UHGV virus genome: UHGV-0130837
DNA: 10,219 nucleotides
Reading direction: 5' to 3' (one strand)
Source of the DNA: a virus
Under the pieces are notes generated by a model. It was not told where the DNA came from. It saw only the letters and a list, made by a program, of their open reading frames with translations, and ran no database searches. Each line of letters starts with the position of its first letter. The stretch's first letter is position 1. The translations under genes and the position numbers were made by a program. Shown here piece by piece: positions 3,963 through 9,363 of this stretch.

Positions 3963-5699
3963 TCACACAATGATGGGATTACTGAAAAAGTCGTCGATAT
4001 CGCCAGAATCATCCTCATAGCCTTCGGAGGCACCGATTGCCATAGCGCCCGCTACAATGCCGTCGATACGCCCGGTACTTTTTTTCTTGGCAAAAATTCG
4101 GTTTTCTTTCTGATCAGCCTCCGTCACTGCTGAAGCCGCATTCCAGCGAAGACAAGGGTTCGTCCTGATGATAATGACACTGTCATCAAGCAACTCTTCA
4201 AACAATTCGATGGAGTGAGGCATCCACAGCCCGGAATCTTTCGCTTTGTAATACCCTTGCCCATGAGGGATTAACGGAACAGAAACAGATGCTTCCTCAA
4301 GCTCCGGCTCAAGATATTTAATGCGATACTGGTCGAAGGCGATGGCCTTGATATCAAACTTCTGAGTCAGATCTGCAATGCGCTGGGCAACAAAGCCGTA
4401 TTTCACTGCTTTGCCAGGTGTGGTGTGGATGTGACCATCTCGCTCCCAGGCGTCATAAGGTACCCGGTCCGTTTTGGCCCGTTCCAGTAACGTATCTTTC
4501 GGGGTCCAGAACTCCACCAGCAACTTACGTTGTTTTGGAAAAAACAACGCCAGTGCCGTCAAATCACGCGATCCGGACAGGTCTAAACCGCCATAGCATT
4601 CCTCACCTTCCAGTTCATCTGGATCAAAGCTCTCCTCACAACCCATCCAGACATCACTGCTCATCCACGGATTAGCCGCGTCAACCCACTGACAGAAGTT
4701 AAGACGTCTGACGATGCTCTCTTTCGATGGCATCCCGCGGGCCTGAGTCACCTGCTCACGAAGATAGCTTTCTTCAAAGGTGTGACCCAGCGAAGGGTTA
4801 GCTTTCTTCCAGCAGGACTCATCCTTGAAAGGATCGTCTCCTTCATCCAGAGAACAAATGAAGGCAAAAAAGCTGTCATCTTCTATCGAACCGGCAGAAA
4901 CCTTTCGGCCGTATTCGTGATAGTCATAGCAGACACTCGTTTTATCGTGCCCACTGTTGGTGATCATGAAAATCAGCGCCTGCCGACGACCTTTGGTACC
5001 GGCACGCATCATTTCAACAACCTGATTGCTTTTATGCTCGTGAACTTCATCAATAAGAGCACAATGCGGTCGCGGGCCGGACTGCCCGTCATCTGAACTG
5101 ATTGGACGAAAGAAGGAACCAGACTGAAGAAAAGCCAGGTTCCATTCCTTCCCGGCACCACCTGATTTCTGAATACGTGCGGAAAGAGCTGGAGACTGAT
5201 CGACCATCGCCACCGCATCACGGAAAAGGACCATTGCCTGGTCTTTCTTCGTGGCAGCGGCATAAACTTCAGCGCGTGCTTCTTTATCCGCAGTGAGACA
5301 GTAAAGCCCTATACCCGCAGACAGAGGGGATTTACCGGATCCCTTCCCGGACTCCACATAGACCATTCGGAACCGGCGAAAACCTCTGGCGTTTTTCCAG
5401 CCAAAAATCGAACCGACGATGAAGCACTGCCATGGCAGCAACACGAAAGGCTCGCCTTCGAAATCACCACCATTGAGCTTCAGAACTTTCGCAAAATAGT
5501 CAATCGAGCGTTGCGCCGCCTCAACATCCCAGTGCAGACCACGGGCATGACATGACTGCAGATCGTTGAGGTGGCGCTGGCATGAGTTACGTATGTCAGG
5601 ACCAGCCAGTTCTTTGCCCGAGGTTACATCCATCGCATATTGGGTTGCTGGATCAACCGAAGAACTTATCGAGCGTGTCCTCTTCGGGGTCTTCGCCAT
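3963..5699 (-). CDS. terL: Terminase large subunit (ATPase plus nuclease)
   Basis: 578 aa. Walker A-like VESGKGSGKS and Asp/Glu-rich C-terminal nuclease region. AGGTG Shine-Dalgarno upstream of ATG 5697-5699. The 5' end overlaps terS by 47 nt. Confidence 0.93.
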   Translation of the reverse strand: MAKTPKRTRSISSSVDPATQYAMDVTSGKELAGPDIRNSCQRHLNDLQSCHARGLHWDVEAAQRSIDYFAKVLKLNGGDFEGEPFVLLPWQCFIVGSIFGWKNARGFRRFRMVYVESGKGSGKSPLSAGIGLYCLTADKEARAEVYAAATKKDQAMVLFRDAVAMVDQSPALSARIQKSGGAGKEWNLAFLQSGSFFRPISSDDGQSGPRPHCALIDEVHEHKSNQVVEMMRAGTKGRRQALIFMITNSGHDKTSVCYDYHEYGRKVSAGSIEDDSFFAFICSLDEGDDPFKDESCWKKANPSLGHTFEESYLREQVTQARGMPSKESIVRRLNFCQWVDAANPWMSSDVWMGCEESFDPDELEGEECYGGLDLSGSRDLTALALFFPKQRKLLVEFWTPKDTLLERAKTDRVPYDAWERDGHIHTTPGKAVKYGFVAQRIADLTQKFDIKAIAFDQYRIKYLEPELEEASVSVPLIPHGQGYYKAKDSGLWMPHSIELFEELLDDSVIIIRTNPCLRWNAASAVTEADQKENRIFAKKKSTGRIDGIVAGAMAIGASEGYEDDSGDIDDFFSNPIIV

Positions 5700-6117
5700 T
5701 CACTTTCACCTTCGTCCTTGCCGCTGGCGTCAGACCGAATTCAACCAGGTAACTTTTAAAACGGCGGTCGGCATCGGCCAGCATCGAAACGGCCGGGTTA
5801 GCTTTGATAAGAAAACCACCCTCGGTCTGGACGGTATAGGTTCTTCCCTCTACTGCGATAGTGTCGCGCAACTGAAGAATATCAGCGTAAATATCGCATA
5901 GCCGTTCAAGGGCTAAGGTGTCGGCAACCGTTAAAACCCCCATCCCGTCAAGGAGAACAGTCAACCTTCCCCAGGCGACCTTTCCCCAGTCGGTCAGGTG
6001 CGCCGGCGGGCTTGGAATTTCTCGCGCCGGAGTCGGTTCTTTATCGTTGAGTTTACGTTTGCCCGGGTTGCCGGAGACCACTTTGAGGTGGGTCGGTTTC
6101 GGGCGTCGTCCTGCCAT
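5653..6117 (-). CDS. terS: Terminase small subunit, P27 family
   Basis: 154 aa. N-terminus MAGRRPKPTHLKVVSGNPGKRK is characteristic of P27-family small terminases. GGGAGG Shine-Dalgarno 5 nt upstream. Immediately upstream of terL. Confidence 0.85.
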   Translation of the reverse strand: MAGRRPKPTHLKVVSGNPGKRKLNDKEPTPAREIPSPPAHLTDWGKVAWGRLTVLLDGMGVLTVADTLALERLCDIYADILQLRDTIAVEGRTYTVQTEGGFLIKANPAVSMLADADRRFKSYLVEFGLTPAARTKVKVNGEDPEEDTLDKFFG

Positions 6118-6234
6118 CGGAACCTCCCGGAAAAAAACTTTTCATTTCGCGGTTGTGCACAAAAAGGAGGGGCGGCGGTCATTTCGGGTCAGACTTCTGA
6201 ACTTTTGACCCGCCCCTCCCCTATGGAATTGACG
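6118..6234. promoter_or_regulatory. Structured HNH-terS intergenic region; candidate cos / packaging-initiation site and/or terminator
   Basis: 10-bp perfect inverted repeat GGAGGGGCGG (6166-6175) / CCGCCCCTCC (6210-6219) encloses a second inverted repeat GGGTCA (6186-6191) / TGACCC (6206-6211) that shares 2 nt with the outer stem. An A5 run lies on the plus side (T5 on the minus strand after the stem). The region sits where cos lies in HK97-like genomes. Confidence 0.3.
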
Positions 6235-6576
6235 TCATCTGAACCAGTGAGAATTTGGATCAAGCGGAATACCGTTTTCATCGCAGCCGATTACGGTGCC
6301 GCGCTTCTCCATTCGCTGCTTCGTTGAGTCATGGTGCTGCTTACACAGCCCTTGCCAGTTCTTCCGGCTCCAGAAAAGCTTTTGCGCTTTCGCTATTGCC
6401 TGGCTGTCACCAGAGCGCAGAGCCTCTTTCAGTTTGTGCGGGATGATGTGGTCAACCACAGTGGCCGCTGTCACCCTGCCTTGCTCCTGGCACATGACGC
6501 ATAAGGGGTGCGCACGAAGGAATATAAGGCGCTCACGGTCCCATTTGCTGCCGTATATGCGCGGTTCTTTGTTCAT
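6235..6576 (-). CDS. HNH endonuclease (packaging-associated)
   Basis: 113 aa with CVMCQEQGR…VDHIIPH…WQGLCKQHH motif (Cys pairs and His typical of the HNH fold). Located directly upstream of terS, as in HK97-like phages. Confidence 0.88.
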   Translation of the reverse strand: MNKEPRIYGSKWDRERLIFLRAHPLCVMCQEQGRVTAATVVDHIIPHKLKEALRSGDSQAIAKAQKLFWSRKNWQGLCKQHHDSTKQRMEKRGTVIGCDENGIPLDPNSHWFR

Positions 6577-6631
6577 GTTATCGCCCCTTGAGCATTATCA
6601 CAGGCACTCAGTGAATGCCTGCTGTAATGCC

Positions 6632-6877
6632 TTAGCTGGACTGTTCAGCGCTAGTATCGAATAGCGGCAGCGCTTCAGTTGCTTCCTGCACTGCTTTCAT
6701 CGTCTTTGCCACCACTTCAGTCTCTGATGTGACACGGCTGTATTGCTGGATGAATAACTGATACTTGAGCGTACTATCCTGAACAAATTCTACAGCGACC
6801 TTTGCAGCGGCAGTGTCTTAGTTCAGGGTGGAAAGTAGGTTAAGACGAATCTGCTGGGCGTCGGTGATTTCGACCAT
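6632..6877 (-). pseudogene. Small ORF interrupted by an in-frame TAA (19 codons, stop, then 61 more codons in the same frame)
   Basis: ATG 6875-6877 with GAGGT Shine-Dalgarno 5 nt upstream gives MVEITDAQQIRLNLLSTLN, then TAA at 6818-6820. The same frame continues DTAAAKVAVEFVQDSTLKYQLFIQQYSRVTSETEVVAKTMKAVQEATEALPLFDTSAEQSS to TAA at 6632-6634. Verified by hand reverse-complementing. Confidence 0.3.
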
Positions 6878-6942
6878 GTCGTACCTCTATGCGATGTGGG
6901 GAGCATTATCGAAGCCATTCGGCAGAATGGCTCCTGTAATGC

Positions 6943-7143
6943 CTACTGTCGTTCCAGGTGTTCGTAACGTGAAATTGTCTTGCCGTTTGCGTTCATCACG
7001 TAGGCAATCTCTCCCTGCTTCAGGAATACGTTCTGGTCCATTCCAGACACCGCGATACTCTGCTGGTTGGGGTTGAAACCAACGCTCAGGCCACAATGGA
7101 TTTCTTCGCCACCATCTGGTGACATCACTTTTACTGTTAACAT
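6943..7143 (-). CDS. Hypothetical small protein (66 aa)
   Basis: Strong Shine-Dalgarno CAGGAG 7 nt upstream of ATG 7141-7143. The translation is protein-like (MLTVKVMSPDGGEEIHCGLSVGFNPNQQ…). No family recognised. Confidence 0.55.
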   Translation of the reverse strand: MLTVKVMSPDGGEEIHCGLSVGFNPNQQSIAVSGMDQNVFLKQGEIAYVMNANGKTISRYEHLERQ

Positions 7144-7163
7144 GCTTCTTCTCCTGCTTCTGG

Positions 7164-7190
7164 TAATAAAAAGCCCCGCTATTGCGAGGC
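7164..7190 (-). terminator. Putative intrinsic terminator (minus strand), 20 nt upstream of the 66-aa gene
   Basis: Minus-strand hairpin GCCTCGC-AATA-GCGGGGC (7 bp, one G-U pair) followed by TTTTTATT. Confidence 0.35.
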
Positions 7191-7278
7191 ATCACGATTA
7201 AAGGCTTCTACAGGGTGGCGGACAACATTTCTCCTCTATACTGTTAAATCGTCGAACTCAACAGAACAGGTAGAAAAT

Positions 7279-7563
7279 ATGATCGATCATTACTACGTAA
7301 CTCACGCTCAAATCCTGGCGCTGAGAAACGTTGTTGCTTTTATCGTGCAAACGATGCCCGAAGAACAAAAAGAAAATGTCCTTCAGGTTTTGAGAAAATT
7401 TGCTGAAATAGAATTAATGGATGGTATCGACACGCCGCCTACGAGTGATATCACCCCGAAAACAGTTGAAAAGTTAAATAAAGCCTACAAGGCAGTCTTC
7501 AATGACATTATCGATCTTTCAACGCCTGGCAGGGAATCTGCTTCAGCAAGCTACCTGCAATAG
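7279..7563 (+). CDS. Hypothetical protein (94 aa), moron-like cargo gene on the opposite strand
   Basis: ATG 7279-7281 with AGGT 7 nt upstream. Candidate -10 TATACT at 7237-7242. Followed by a hairpin terminator. Hand-counted GC of sampled 60-nt lines is about 40%, against about 57% in a capsid line. Mildly acidic, predicted helical, no signal peptide. No family recognised. Confidence 0.6.
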   Translation: MIDHYYVTHAQILALRNVVAFIVQTMPEEQKENVLQVLRKFAEIELMDGIDTPPTSDITPKTVEKLNKAYKAVFNDIIDLSTPGRESASASYLQ

Positions 7564-7653: not shown

Positions 7654-7884
7654 TCATCGCGTAACCCTGCCGGTTGGTTGCGGGCAGTTAGCCTGCACTG
7701 ATTTGTTGTGCGCCAGAATGTCGCGCTTCGTCTGCTTATCCAGCACATCGATATCGTGGTCAGTAAGGTAGATGATCCGCACCCAGCTGCACGCGGTATC
7801 AACCACCACCGGGGCGGGTAAACTTTTCGCGCAGCTCGCGATCAACATCGTCATCGCCCATACGCTTAACGCTCTCTTCAACAT
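7654..7884 (-). CDS. Outer-membrane spanin lipoprotein (o-spanin, Rz1-like), overlapped architecture
   Basis: Begins at Met54 of the 129-aa ORF: MLKRALSVWAMTMLIASC… is a lipoprotein signal peptide with lipobox IASC. The mature part is short, Pro-containing, with extra Cys. AAAGGGG Shine-Dalgarno 6 nt upstream. Starts inside the i-spanin gene in another frame and extends beyond it. Confidence 0.6.
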   Translation of the reverse strand: MLKRALSVWAMTMLIASCAKSLPAPVVVDTACSWVRIIYLTDHDIDVLDKQTKRDILAHNKSVQANCPQPTGRVTR

Positions 7885-8080
7885 CGCTGGCCCCTTTCGT
7901 GGCTTCTGCTTTACGTTCTGCCGCGGCGACGCTGGCGGCCGCCTTCTCTTCGGTGCGCTGCCGGCTGGCTTTCGCTTCTGCTTTACTGGTGCCTCGCGCA
8001 TGGCCAATGCCGAACGCGCCAGCAATAGCGCCCAGAATGACAACCACCAGCCCCGCGATAGCTTCTATTCCCATGATCAT
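7799..8080 (-). CDS. Inner-membrane spanin (i-spanin, Rz-like)
   Basis: 93 aa. N-terminal TM helix (IEAIAGLVVVILGAIAGAFGIG) followed by an Ala/Glu/Lys-rich helical region. Start overlaps the endolysin stop (ATGA). Caveats: shorter than typical Rz, and the charge distribution around the TM is atypical. Confidence 0.5.
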   Translation of the reverse strand: MIMGIEAIAGLVVVILGAIAGAFGIGHARGTSKAEAKASRQRTEEKAAASVAAAERKAEATKGASDVEESVKRMGDDDVDRELREKFTRPGGG

Positions 8081-8706
8081 CCCACCAGTACCGATTTTGC
8101 TTTCAGGAATCGGGCGCGTCGGTCATCAATGCCGTTCTGCCCGCCGTTGATAATCTGGGTCACGCGCACTAAATCTCCGTGGTATTTCAAACATCCGTTT
8201 GAGGTGTAAAACCAGGCTGCGCTGCGGGCCGCATTAATATATTTCTCCAACAACTCAGGGTTGCTGACTAAATCCAGTTTCAGTGCATTACCGCACTTCA
8301 TATAATTTTCGAGGAAGGTGATCCCGATAATTCCACGCCCGCGGTATTTCCAGCCATCGCCCGCAGCCTTATTGCCAAAACGATTGTTGTAGACGAGATT
8401 AGCGATCGCTCGTTGACGTTCGATCGGTAAAACCTTTTCGTAAGTTTTACGCCCCAGGGTGTTCGCCTGGTCCTGCGTGATGCGCTTTGCCTTCACAAAA
8501 CCAGCCAGGCCGGCAACGCTATAGTTAAAACTTTCGACCATCTGGGTAAATGACGTGCTTTCGTGTCCACACTGCGCTATGAACATCGCCTGATCGAGTG
8601 GAGCTGTAATGCCGAATTCTTTCATCGCAGCATCAATATGCGGAAACCAGCGCGCAGCTAACCCGGCGCTGATACCAGCCGCCCTTTGAAATTGTGATTG
8701 GTTCAT
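8077..8706 (-). CDS. Endolysin, glycoside hydrolase family 19 (chitinase-like) type
   Basis: 209 aa; sequence …FIAQCGHESTSFTQMVESFNYS…NNRFGNKAAGDGWKYRGRGIIGITFLENY… matches GH19-type phage lysins. No signal peptide. Start overlaps the upstream membrane-protein stop (TGATG). Confidence 0.88.
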   Translation of the reverse strand: MNQSQFQRAAGISAGLAARWFPHIDAAMKEFGITAPLDQAMFIAQCGHESTSFTQMVESFNYSVAGLAGFVKAKRITQDQANTLGRKTYEKVLPIERQRAIANLVYNNRFGNKAAGDGWKYRGRGIIGITFLENYMKCGNALKLDLVSNPELLEKYINAARSAAWFYTSNGCLKYHGDLVRVTQIINGGQNGIDDRRARFLKAKSVLVG

Positions 8707-8984
8707 CAGTGCCTCAGTGCATCAACCAGTCGCGCCACATTCCCCCTGAACCAGAGAACCGCGCCGCAGATAAGAATGTTAGCCAGCACCACCAGCCAGT
8801 GGGATGACTCGTACAGGCCAAACAGGAAACGGAAAGGGATGCTGGCATAAACCAGCACCATGAGATAAGCCAGAACGGATATGCCCGGACGGTGTCTCGC
8901 ACTACCTCGTTGGTAGAACATCAATGCCAGCACAATGACGGCGCAAATGACTGCATTGGCCAGCGCTGAAGGATCATTTACCAC
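8706..8984 (-). CDS. Holin/antiholin-like small membrane protein (about 3 TM segments)
   Basis: 92 aa, three hydrophobic segments, immediately upstream of and translationally coupled to the endolysin. Confidence 0.6.
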   Translation of the reverse strand: MVNDPSALANAVICAVIVLALMFYQRGSARHRPGISVLAYLMVLVYASIPFRFLFGLYESSHWLVVLANILICGAVLWFRGNVARLVDALRH

Positions 8985-9363
8985 TTGAACCTCCTCCCCG
9001 GAACCGGGTCAGCATATTGAACAAGCTATTTAGATCCTGGCTGTTGAGAAACGTCAGAACTTTGATGATAAGCGCTGATATTAATACGGCTCCCAACGCA
9101 TCAAGCGGACGGTCGCTGTAGCCAGTCCAGCTTGAAAGCTTGGAACCCACCAGACCGGCGCCCAGAACACCAACAATGAATGACGTCATAAAGTATGCCA
9201 CCAGCTTACCGCGCGATATGTTAGCTGCCGTGGCCACGTAAAAAACCGCCCCGGCGAACGCACCAAATACCACGCCGTAATCTATTCCGGTAGCCAGACC
9301 GAACATGCTAGCCCCCATCAGGCCGCCGGCCGCAACTGAAGTACCAGAGACAGGATCGGACAT
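8974..9363 (-). CDS. Putative holin (multi-TM small membrane protein with charged C-terminus)
   Basis: 129 aa with several Gly/Ala-rich hydrophobic helices and a basic C-terminal tail. First gene of the lysis cassette. AGAGGGGG Shine-Dalgarno upstream. Confidence 0.6.
   Translation of the reverse strand: MSDPVSGTSVAAGGLMGASMFGLATGIDYGVVFGAFAGAVFYVATAANISRGKLVAYFMTSFIVGVLGAGLVGSKLSSWTGYSDRPLDALGAVLISALIIKVLTFLNSQDLNSLFNMLTRFRGGGSSGK

Follow-up and report, generated by a model that had tools for sequence, protein, structure and literature searches.

A probable HK97-type 3′ cos site between the HNH endonuclease gene and terS of an HK97-like temperate phage

The cos site of phage lambda (cosQ-cosN-cosB) comprises an upstream element on the right-end side, a nick site, and a small-terminase binding region beside the small terminase gene, and has partial two-fold symmetry centred on the nicks. 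The small terminase (TerS) of lambda is, to our knowledge, unrelated to the TerS encoded at the locus described here, and we know of no HNH protein in lambda. For phage HK97, a 10-nt 3′ overhang has been reported (PMC11331095; PMC9410871; PMC5557969), with PhageTerm termini at 2047 and 2036 (PMC5557969). Cleavage of HK97 cos needs TerS gp1, the large terminase (TerL) gp2, and the HNH protein gp74 (role of gp74: PMC13595911; PMC9410871; PMC11331095), and the minimal site of HK97 TerS spans +15 to +29, with a T/A tract included (PMC11331095). More generally, the HNH–terS gene arrangement is typical of cos phages (PMC13595911). In the linear HK97 record, the overhang corresponds to the final 10 nt, CGCCGCCAAA, which follow ...ATGAC, while 319 nt separate gp74 (HNH) from the right end and gp1 (terS) begins at nt 50, in agreement with a preliminary description of the present locus, which had placed the cos of HK97-like phages between the HNH gene and terS.

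The DNA analysed here (the window) is a stretch of 10,219 nt from UHGV virus genome UHGV-0130837, in which holin, endolysin, Rz/Rz1, HNH, the gap under study, terS, terL, portal, protease, and capsid genes follow one another in this order, all on the minus strand. Two holin genes (8974–9363 and 8706–8984) are followed by a GH19 endolysin gene (8077–8706) and the Rz/Rz1 spanin genes (7654–8043, with the embedded frame at 7799–8080), and genes for portal, S78 protease, and HK97-fold capsid lie downstream of terL. The 117-nt gap (6118–6234) is bounded by the stop codon of the minus-strand ORF 6235–6576 and the ATG of the minus-strand ORF 5653–6117. The former encodes an HNH endonuclease, a packaging accessory nuclease of the HK97 gp74 type (phrog_2323, E 1.9e-52), with 74% identity to gp74 and a Pfam HNH score of 21.2 bits, just short of the 21.4 cut-off. 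The latter is terS, encoding a P27-family small terminase (Pfam PF05119 Terminase_4, E 1.5e-24; phrog_83), and its ribosome-binding site was read from the sequence as GGGAGG at 6123–6128 on the minus strand. The terL gene (3963–5699, minus strand) encodes an HK97-type large terminase (PF20441 and PF03354), 30% identical to HK97 gp2 (E 5e-66) and with Pfam domains in common. Its longest ORF, starting at 5699, overlaps terS by 47 nt; because TerL of Pantoea phage AH07 can be aligned to the window TerL only from residue 23 (MDVTSG...), the real terL start is probably 5633, 20 nt past the terS stop codon.

An alignment with the cos sites of characterised HK97-like phages had been proposed in the preliminary description, and in such an alignment (MAFFT) the joined ends of HK97 were collinear with the gap from the G-rich box through AAATGACCGCCGCC. 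In both phages the cos position has the HNH gene on one side and terS on the other (in the window, within the gap flanked by 6235–6576 and 5653–6117), and G-box, spacer, and AAATGACCGCCGCC run collinearly as far as the cut. The right end of HK97 reads ...GGGCAGGGGGGGGGATCAAATCTTCA...CCCCAAATGACCGCCGCCAAA, followed by the left end with terS at nt 50, and its counterpart in the window reads GGGGAGGGGCGGGTCAAAAGTTCA...CCCGAAATGACCGCCGCCCCTCC, with terS 50 nt further on. Written across the junction, the joined HK97 ends are ...GGGCAGGGGGGGGGATCAAATCTTCAAAACCTTTGCCCCAAATGAC, CGCCGCCAAA, and, beyond the cut, GTTTGAATTT..., and the minus strand of the window is GGGGAGGGGCGGGTCAAAAGTTCAGAAGTCTGACCCGAAATGAC, CGCCGCCCCT, and CCTTTTTGTGCACAACCGCGAAATGAAAAGTTTTTTTCCGGGAGGTTCCGATG. 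The start of terS thus falls ~50 nt from the left end in HK97 and ~50 nt from the predicted left end in the window, whereas the distance from the stop codon of the HNH gene to the genome end is 319 nt in HK97 and ~57 nt in the window. The last three to four bases of the overhang also differ, being CCCT in the window and CAAA in HK97, and HK97, unlike the window, has neither a perfect inverted repeat nor a T5 run.

On the left-end side of the cut, the sequences of HK97 and the window differ, in line with their differing TerS proteins: that of the window belongs to the P27/Terminase_4 family, whereas HK97 gp1 has no Pfam match and showed no detectable similarity to the window TerS by BLASTP. A PDB sequence search with the window TerS returned chance matches only (E ~1), so the structure of HK97 TerS with DNA is not transferable by homology. 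Neither a gp1-type TerS nor its recognition site CTAACCCGATTTTTT at +15 to +29 was found in the window, where a different invariant block, CGCGAAATGAA, occupies +17 to +27 in place of CTAACCCGATTTTTT; it belongs to a strongly conserved element with a T7 tract at ~+15 to +38, to be compared with the HK97 TerS site at +15 to +29 (PMC11331095). Homology between the window block and the HK97 TerS site (AACCCGA against AACCGCGA) was considered and dropped, the TerS proteins being unrelated, and only the equal distance from the cut was kept. Since the window TerS is unrelated to gp1 while HNH, TerL, and the cut side are HK97-like, the module reads as a mosaic with its joint at the cut, the HNH/G-box/cut side appearing HK97-like and the other side belonging to a P27-type TerS.

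The position of the cut can be tied to genome ends in two phages with closely related terminases. Pantoea phage AH07 (MZ501270), which is 89.6%, 78%, and 72% identical to the window in TerS, TerL, and HNH, respectively, is known from virion sequencing, with termini assigned by PAUSE and PhageTerm (PMC8567787). The AH07 record begins CCTTTTTATGCACAACCGCG..., places terS at nt 51, and ends ...GACCTCCTGAC; position 1 aligns by BLAST to window position 6167. In prophage L134 (Pantoea), otherwise identical to AH07, exactly 10 nt, CGCCCGCCCC, stand between the two end sequences of AH07. Because end repair strips 3′ overhangs, such that a 3′-cos phage assembles without its cohesive sequence (PMC5557969), the 10 nt missing from AH07 relative to L134 are best read as a 10-nt 3′ overhang starting right after GAC, as in HK97. 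In Serratia phage vB_SspS_OS31 (MT843276), whose TerS is 87% identical to that of the window, the reads obtained from induced particles set in at nt 19,032 and become fewer downstream, and this position was taken by its authors as the packaging start (PMC7556043). This nucleotide, the first C of CCTTTCTGTGCAC / CCTTTCTGTGCACAACCGCG, also aligns to window position 6167. The same authors reported an apparent packaging defect in OS31, with tail-less particles, and suspected premature termination of packaging (PMC7556043).

AH07 and OS31 are like the window in TerS family (87–90% identity), in the invariant block, in the G-box, and in the left-end sequence CCTTT(T/C)T(G/A)TGCACAACCGCG. The cohesive end is CGCCCGCCCC in AH07, CTATCACCGT by alignment in OS31, and CGCCGCCCCT as predicted in the window. 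OS31 differs by an insertion of ~85 nt before terS and by having almost no inverted repeat, and AH07 has a 9/10 repeat in a shifted register. A more distant case is Proteus phage Pm34 (TerS ~44% identical to the window TerS), whose linear record is cut between ...CCTAGGAC and CGCCCCCTTACCTC..., that is, after GAC and before CGCCCCCTTA, with a window-like G-box ~30 nt upstream.

Some further observations concern the records themselves. In Pm34 (L170/L171 ends), the first 700 nt beside the GAC/CGCCCCCTTA end carry no annotated HNH gene; the adjacent genes code for a 65-aa protein and a holin, and the block downstream of the cut differs, reading GGTTAGAAAACTTTTTTT. Klebsiella phage P7641 (PQ133623.1) was dropped as end evidence, its record looking trimmed at gene borders: this ‘complete genome’ runs from the stop codon of the HNH gene to the start codon of terS and omits the cos gap entirely. 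The circular record of Providencia phage PSTRCR_117lys, which lacks ~39 nt relative to Pm34 at the junction, was set aside as unreliable, and viral contig L149, which starts 41 nt before terS and 9 nt inside the predicted end, was uninformative on ends.

Taken with the collinearity with HK97, the ends of AH07 and OS31, both at 6167, give strong support to the placement of cos in the HNH–terS gap that the preliminary description had put forward, and the gap is very probably the cos site of an HK97-like temperate phage. The class is a known one, an ordinary HK97-type 3′-cos site coupled to a P27-family TerS. By homology, the 10-nt 3′ cohesive end (the cosN equivalent) is predicted at 6168–6177, with the sequence CGCCGCCCCT (minus strand) or AGGGGCGGCG (plus strand). 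This would make 6167 the left end of the genome, with putative nicks at 6167/6168 on the minus strand and 6177/6178 on the plus strand, and this homology-based position could be off by 1–2 nt. A conserved ATGAC (6178–6182, minus strand) lies directly on the right-end side of the cut, and the G-box block GGGGAGGGGCGGGTCAAAAGTTCA, a conserved cos subsite (6198–6221, minus strand), lies 21–44 bp from the cut on the same side. On the left-end side, a near-invariant block, GTGCACAACCGCGAAATGAAAAGTTTTTTTC (6130–6160, minus strand), spans +8 to +38 from the predicted left end, and its invariant core CGCGAAATGAA (6141–6151, minus strand) spans +17 to +27. This block is the probable TerS recognition site (cosB equivalent), by analogy with the position of the HK97 site; since the window TerS has no detectable similarity to gp1, the HK97 TerS result transfers by analogy of position only. 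By eye, TCAAAAGTTCA in the spacer matches an IHF site (WATCAANNNNTTR) in part; this match was not used.

For the conservation analysis, 160 loci with relatives of the window TerS were collected from genomes and viral contigs, giving 146 distinct 200-nt upstream stretches. Filtering by the CGCGAAATGAA motif left 98 distinct 115-nt regions, which together with the window made up 99 aligned rows from many genera. The core CGCGAAATGAA never varies in the 99 rows, 98 of which had been selected by this motif, and the block GTGCACAACCGCGAAATGAAAAGTTTTTTTC (6160–6130) that flanks it is invariant or at least 90% conserved in the same rows. Within the G-box, three G are invariant, four G are at least 90% conserved, and AAAAGTTCA is at least 90% conserved (99 rows); the same level is reached by GACC at the cut and CCTTT at the left end (99 rows). 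The cohesive-end sequence itself varies between relatives. An AT-rich insertion of ~80–90 nt was found between the cos block and the terS ribosome-binding site in OS31 (L167, 770–860), in locus L017, and in three insect-symbiont prophages (L044, L046, L047). In all of these, the distance of the cos block from the cut is unchanged despite the insertion displacing terS, and the 6130–6160 block therefore appears to belong to cos and not to the translation signals of terS.

The three-part layout, including TCGCGAAATGAAAA, recurs in Firmicutes prophages (Lachnospiraceae, Blautia, Mogibacterium), and a Dorea prophage (L048) has the same layout with the variant core GTCGCAAAATGAAAAG. Loci from Mogibacterium, Pseudomonas, and Proteus have the HNH gene immediately upstream. 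The G-box was seen in HK97, Pm34, and Firmicutes prophages, and it accompanies the HNH–terS arrangement in Proteobacteria and Firmicutes (the adjacent stretch examined in Pm34 has no annotated HNH gene). In the Firmicutes loci L048, L052, L053, and L080, a G-box and a GACCGGCGCCCCC-type cut region were found ~120 nt upstream of terS, with TerS only 42–45% identical to that of the window; across phyla, as judged from these Firmicutes prophages, conservation is higher in the non-coding cos DNA than in the TerS protein.

From HK97 and the relatives above, the following mechanism is proposed. Along the minus strand, cos would consist of the G-rich box with the attached AAAAGTTCA motif (6221–6198), the cleavage site ATGAC^CGCCGCCCCT^CC (6182–6166), and the TerS recognition block (6160–6130), which ends 6 nt before the terS ribosome-binding site (6128–6123). 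The P27-family TerS would bind the invariant CGCGAAATGAA block, 17–27 bp inside the left end, and TerL, with help from HNH, would introduce nicks staggered by 10 nt, leaving 3′ overhangs over 6168–6177. Starting at 6167, packaging would proceed in the direction of falling window coordinates, taking in terS, terL, and then the portal gene. Last to enter the head would be the G-box, which lies at the place of lambda cosQ and may, speculatively, aid recognition or termination at the next cos. The three-part logic is common to lambda and the window, whereas the overhang differs, being a 12-nt 5′ one in lambda (PMC5557969) and a predicted 10-nt 3′ one in the window.

The gap had drawn attention through its symmetry. 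A perfect 10-bp inverted repeat was found exactly as first described, with its left arm GGAGGGGCGG (plus strand) at 6166–6175, overlapping the predicted cohesive end, its right arm CCGCCCCTCC (plus strand) at 6210–6219, within the G-box, and 34 nt separating the arms. The second repeat reported inside it, GGGTCA/TGACCC, is real and extends to 7 bp (CGGGTCA 6185–6191 / TGACCCG 6206–6212), but it is not enclosed as had been stated: it shares 3 nt (6210–6212) of its right arm with the outer right arm, so the two pairings partly exclude each other, and the inner repeat is an alternative pairing, not a strictly nested one. In the predicted fold, the outer stem is lengthened by GUCA/UGAC (4 bp) past a 2-nt bulge, and a 4-bp mini-hairpin forms within the loop. 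The T5 run said to follow the outer stem on the minus strand was also found, TTTTT at 6165–6161, directly 3′ of the stem and part of the conserved left-end CCTTTTT. This is the sole perfect 10-bp inverted repeat with a loop of at most 60 nt in the 10.2-kb window, and dinucleotide shuffles of the whole window gave a mean of 0.66 such repeats (loop ≤60 nt), whereas only 236 of 20,000 shuffles of the 117-nt gap (~1.2%) held a perfect 10-bp inverted repeat; the repeat is unremarkable at the scale of the window and unusual for a gap of 117 nt. Folding of the segment that runs from G-box to T-run gave −31.1 kcal/mol (z = −3.65).

In the preliminary description, such symmetry had been taken as a mark of binding sites for terminase and accessory factors, a reading against which the comparative data speak: the stem shows no covariation, the predicted cut falls inside one arm, and the candidate TerS site (6130–6160) lies outside the repeat. 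For the 14-bp stem together with the mini-hairpin in its loop, 67.4% of cells pair in the 99 rows, against 67.9% in shuffles that keep column composition, and no covariation or compensatory change in the stem was found among these rows. Stem pairs 15–63, 19–59, and 18–60 are broken in 79, 57, and 44 of the 99 sequences, respectively, the perfect 10 pairs occur in only 2 of 99, and for the inner repeat 53.5% of cells pair (99 rows). Most close relatives have CCGCCCATCC or CCGCCAGTCC where the window has CCGCCCCTCC; judged from these sequences, a single base makes the match perfect, namely 6169 on the minus strand, which is C in the window and A in most close relatives. The predicted cohesive end falls within the left arm (6166–6175), and the centre of symmetry of the repeat, at ~6192–6193, lies ~20 bp from the predicted overhang, whereas in lambda it lies at the nicks.

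A function for the complementarity in DNA, for example a cruciform or snap-back hairpin that presents the cut site to HNH and TerL, was weighed against these data. Such a role could be imagined from the hairpin between G-box and cut that is predicted in many lineages (Pantoea, Pseudomonas, Franconibacter, Mogibacterium), in some of them in shifted registers, and from the G-box accompanying the HK97-type cut site across phyla. However, although a hairpin from G-box to cut comes up often in folding predictions (median −24 kcal/mol; z-score median −1.7, with 39% below −2), this frequency is expected, because a G-rich box faces a C-rich box, and a G-run and a C-run are complementary through composition alone. 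When the G-box of each phage was scored in any register against its own cut segment and against those of other phages, the mean score was 5.70 for matched pairs and 5.81 for mismatched ones, and 4691 of 5000 permutations reached the observed mean, so that matched pairs are no more complementary than mismatched ones; the share of paired stem cells likewise equals the shuffle expectation. Complementarity is only weak in HK97 and OS31, and the natural variants CCGCCCATCC and CCGCCAGTCC hint that cos cleavage tolerates a broken repeat. A function of the complementarity in DNA is thus very unlikely. The related proposal that the G-box (GGGGAGGGGCGGGT-AAAAGTTCA) is a cos subsite absent from the literature consulted, whose complementarity is used mechanically, as a hairpin or cruciform for HNH, or which acts as a cosQ-like stop signal, is somewhat less improbable but still unlikely. 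The perfect repeat is regarded as largely incidental, a conserved G-box facing a C-rich cohesive end, and we conclude from the aligned sequences that its arms are, in all likelihood, independently conserved elements whose pairing is not what selection appears to maintain.

The hairpin could instead be mainly an intrinsic (Rho-independent) terminator on the minus strand, downstream of HNH, insulating terS and terL from all but antiterminated RNA polymerase arriving from upstream. In the mRNA sense, a G+C-rich stem of 13 bp with a 4-bp extension is followed directly by UUUUUG, the predicted fold from G-box to T-run is stable (energy and z-score above), and the T-run is kept in most close relatives. 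Yet the 23-nt loop, which holds a mini-hairpin, departs from the compact short-loop form of a terminator, and the hairpin was missed by a scan for loops of 3–8 nt; the stem shows no covariation, and one to three of its positions are broken in most relatives; HK97 has no T-run at the homologous place, and Proteus, Providencia, and some Serratia relatives have CATTTGTG in place of the T5 run. The site also lies midway in a co-oriented late gene block in which read-through is required for the terminase and head genes, and the T-run and C-rich arm are already accounted for as conserved left-end and cohesive-end sequence. A promoter and terminator consensus scan of 5500–7500 found no promoter and left the hairpin uncalled, its loop exceeding 8 nt, and an Rfam scan of 5900–6500 on both strands (E up to 1) gave no match. 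Termination as the main role is accordingly considered unlikely, while in this phage the hairpin with its U5, which has the look of a strong though oversized terminator, may have a secondary role in terminating transcripts that are not antiterminated. Headful (pac) packaging, with the repeat unrelated to packaging, is improbable in the extreme: TerL is HK97-type, the ends of close relatives are fixed at the corresponding place, and the HNH–terS arrangement is typical of cos phages (PMC13595911).

With the gap read as an HK97-type cos site, the packaging origin of the prophage is placed in its annotation, with a predicted left end (6167), cohesive end (6168–6177), and packaging direction, which may be of use in judging whether the prophage is intact and which flanking DNA could be mobilised. 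For comparative work, the locus offers a mosaic joint that appears to lie exactly at the cut, and a three-part layout that extends from enterobacterial to Firmicutes prophages. No new principle is involved, HK97-type cos packaging and the role of HNH being already established; mildly new is only how widely conserved the G-box and the TerS block are, two elements to which roles are here assigned by inference.

The minus strand also carries small genes of unknown function, situated between the spanin genes and the HNH gene. Just upstream of the HNH gene, an 82-codon ORF (6632–6877, minus strand) is broken by an in-frame TAA at 6820–6818; its downstream part corresponds to a gene annotated as DUF2560 family protein in E. 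coli relatives, and the break may be a nonsense mutation or the ORF a pseudogene. A compact terminator-like hairpin, GCCTCGCAATAGCGGGGC followed by TTTTTATTAC (7173–7190, minus strand), lies just upstream of the phrog_3909 gene at 6943–7143. Between this hairpin and the spanin genes, an opposite-strand gene (7279–7563, plus strand; phrog_19753, 94 aa) was found, which may be a moron insertion.
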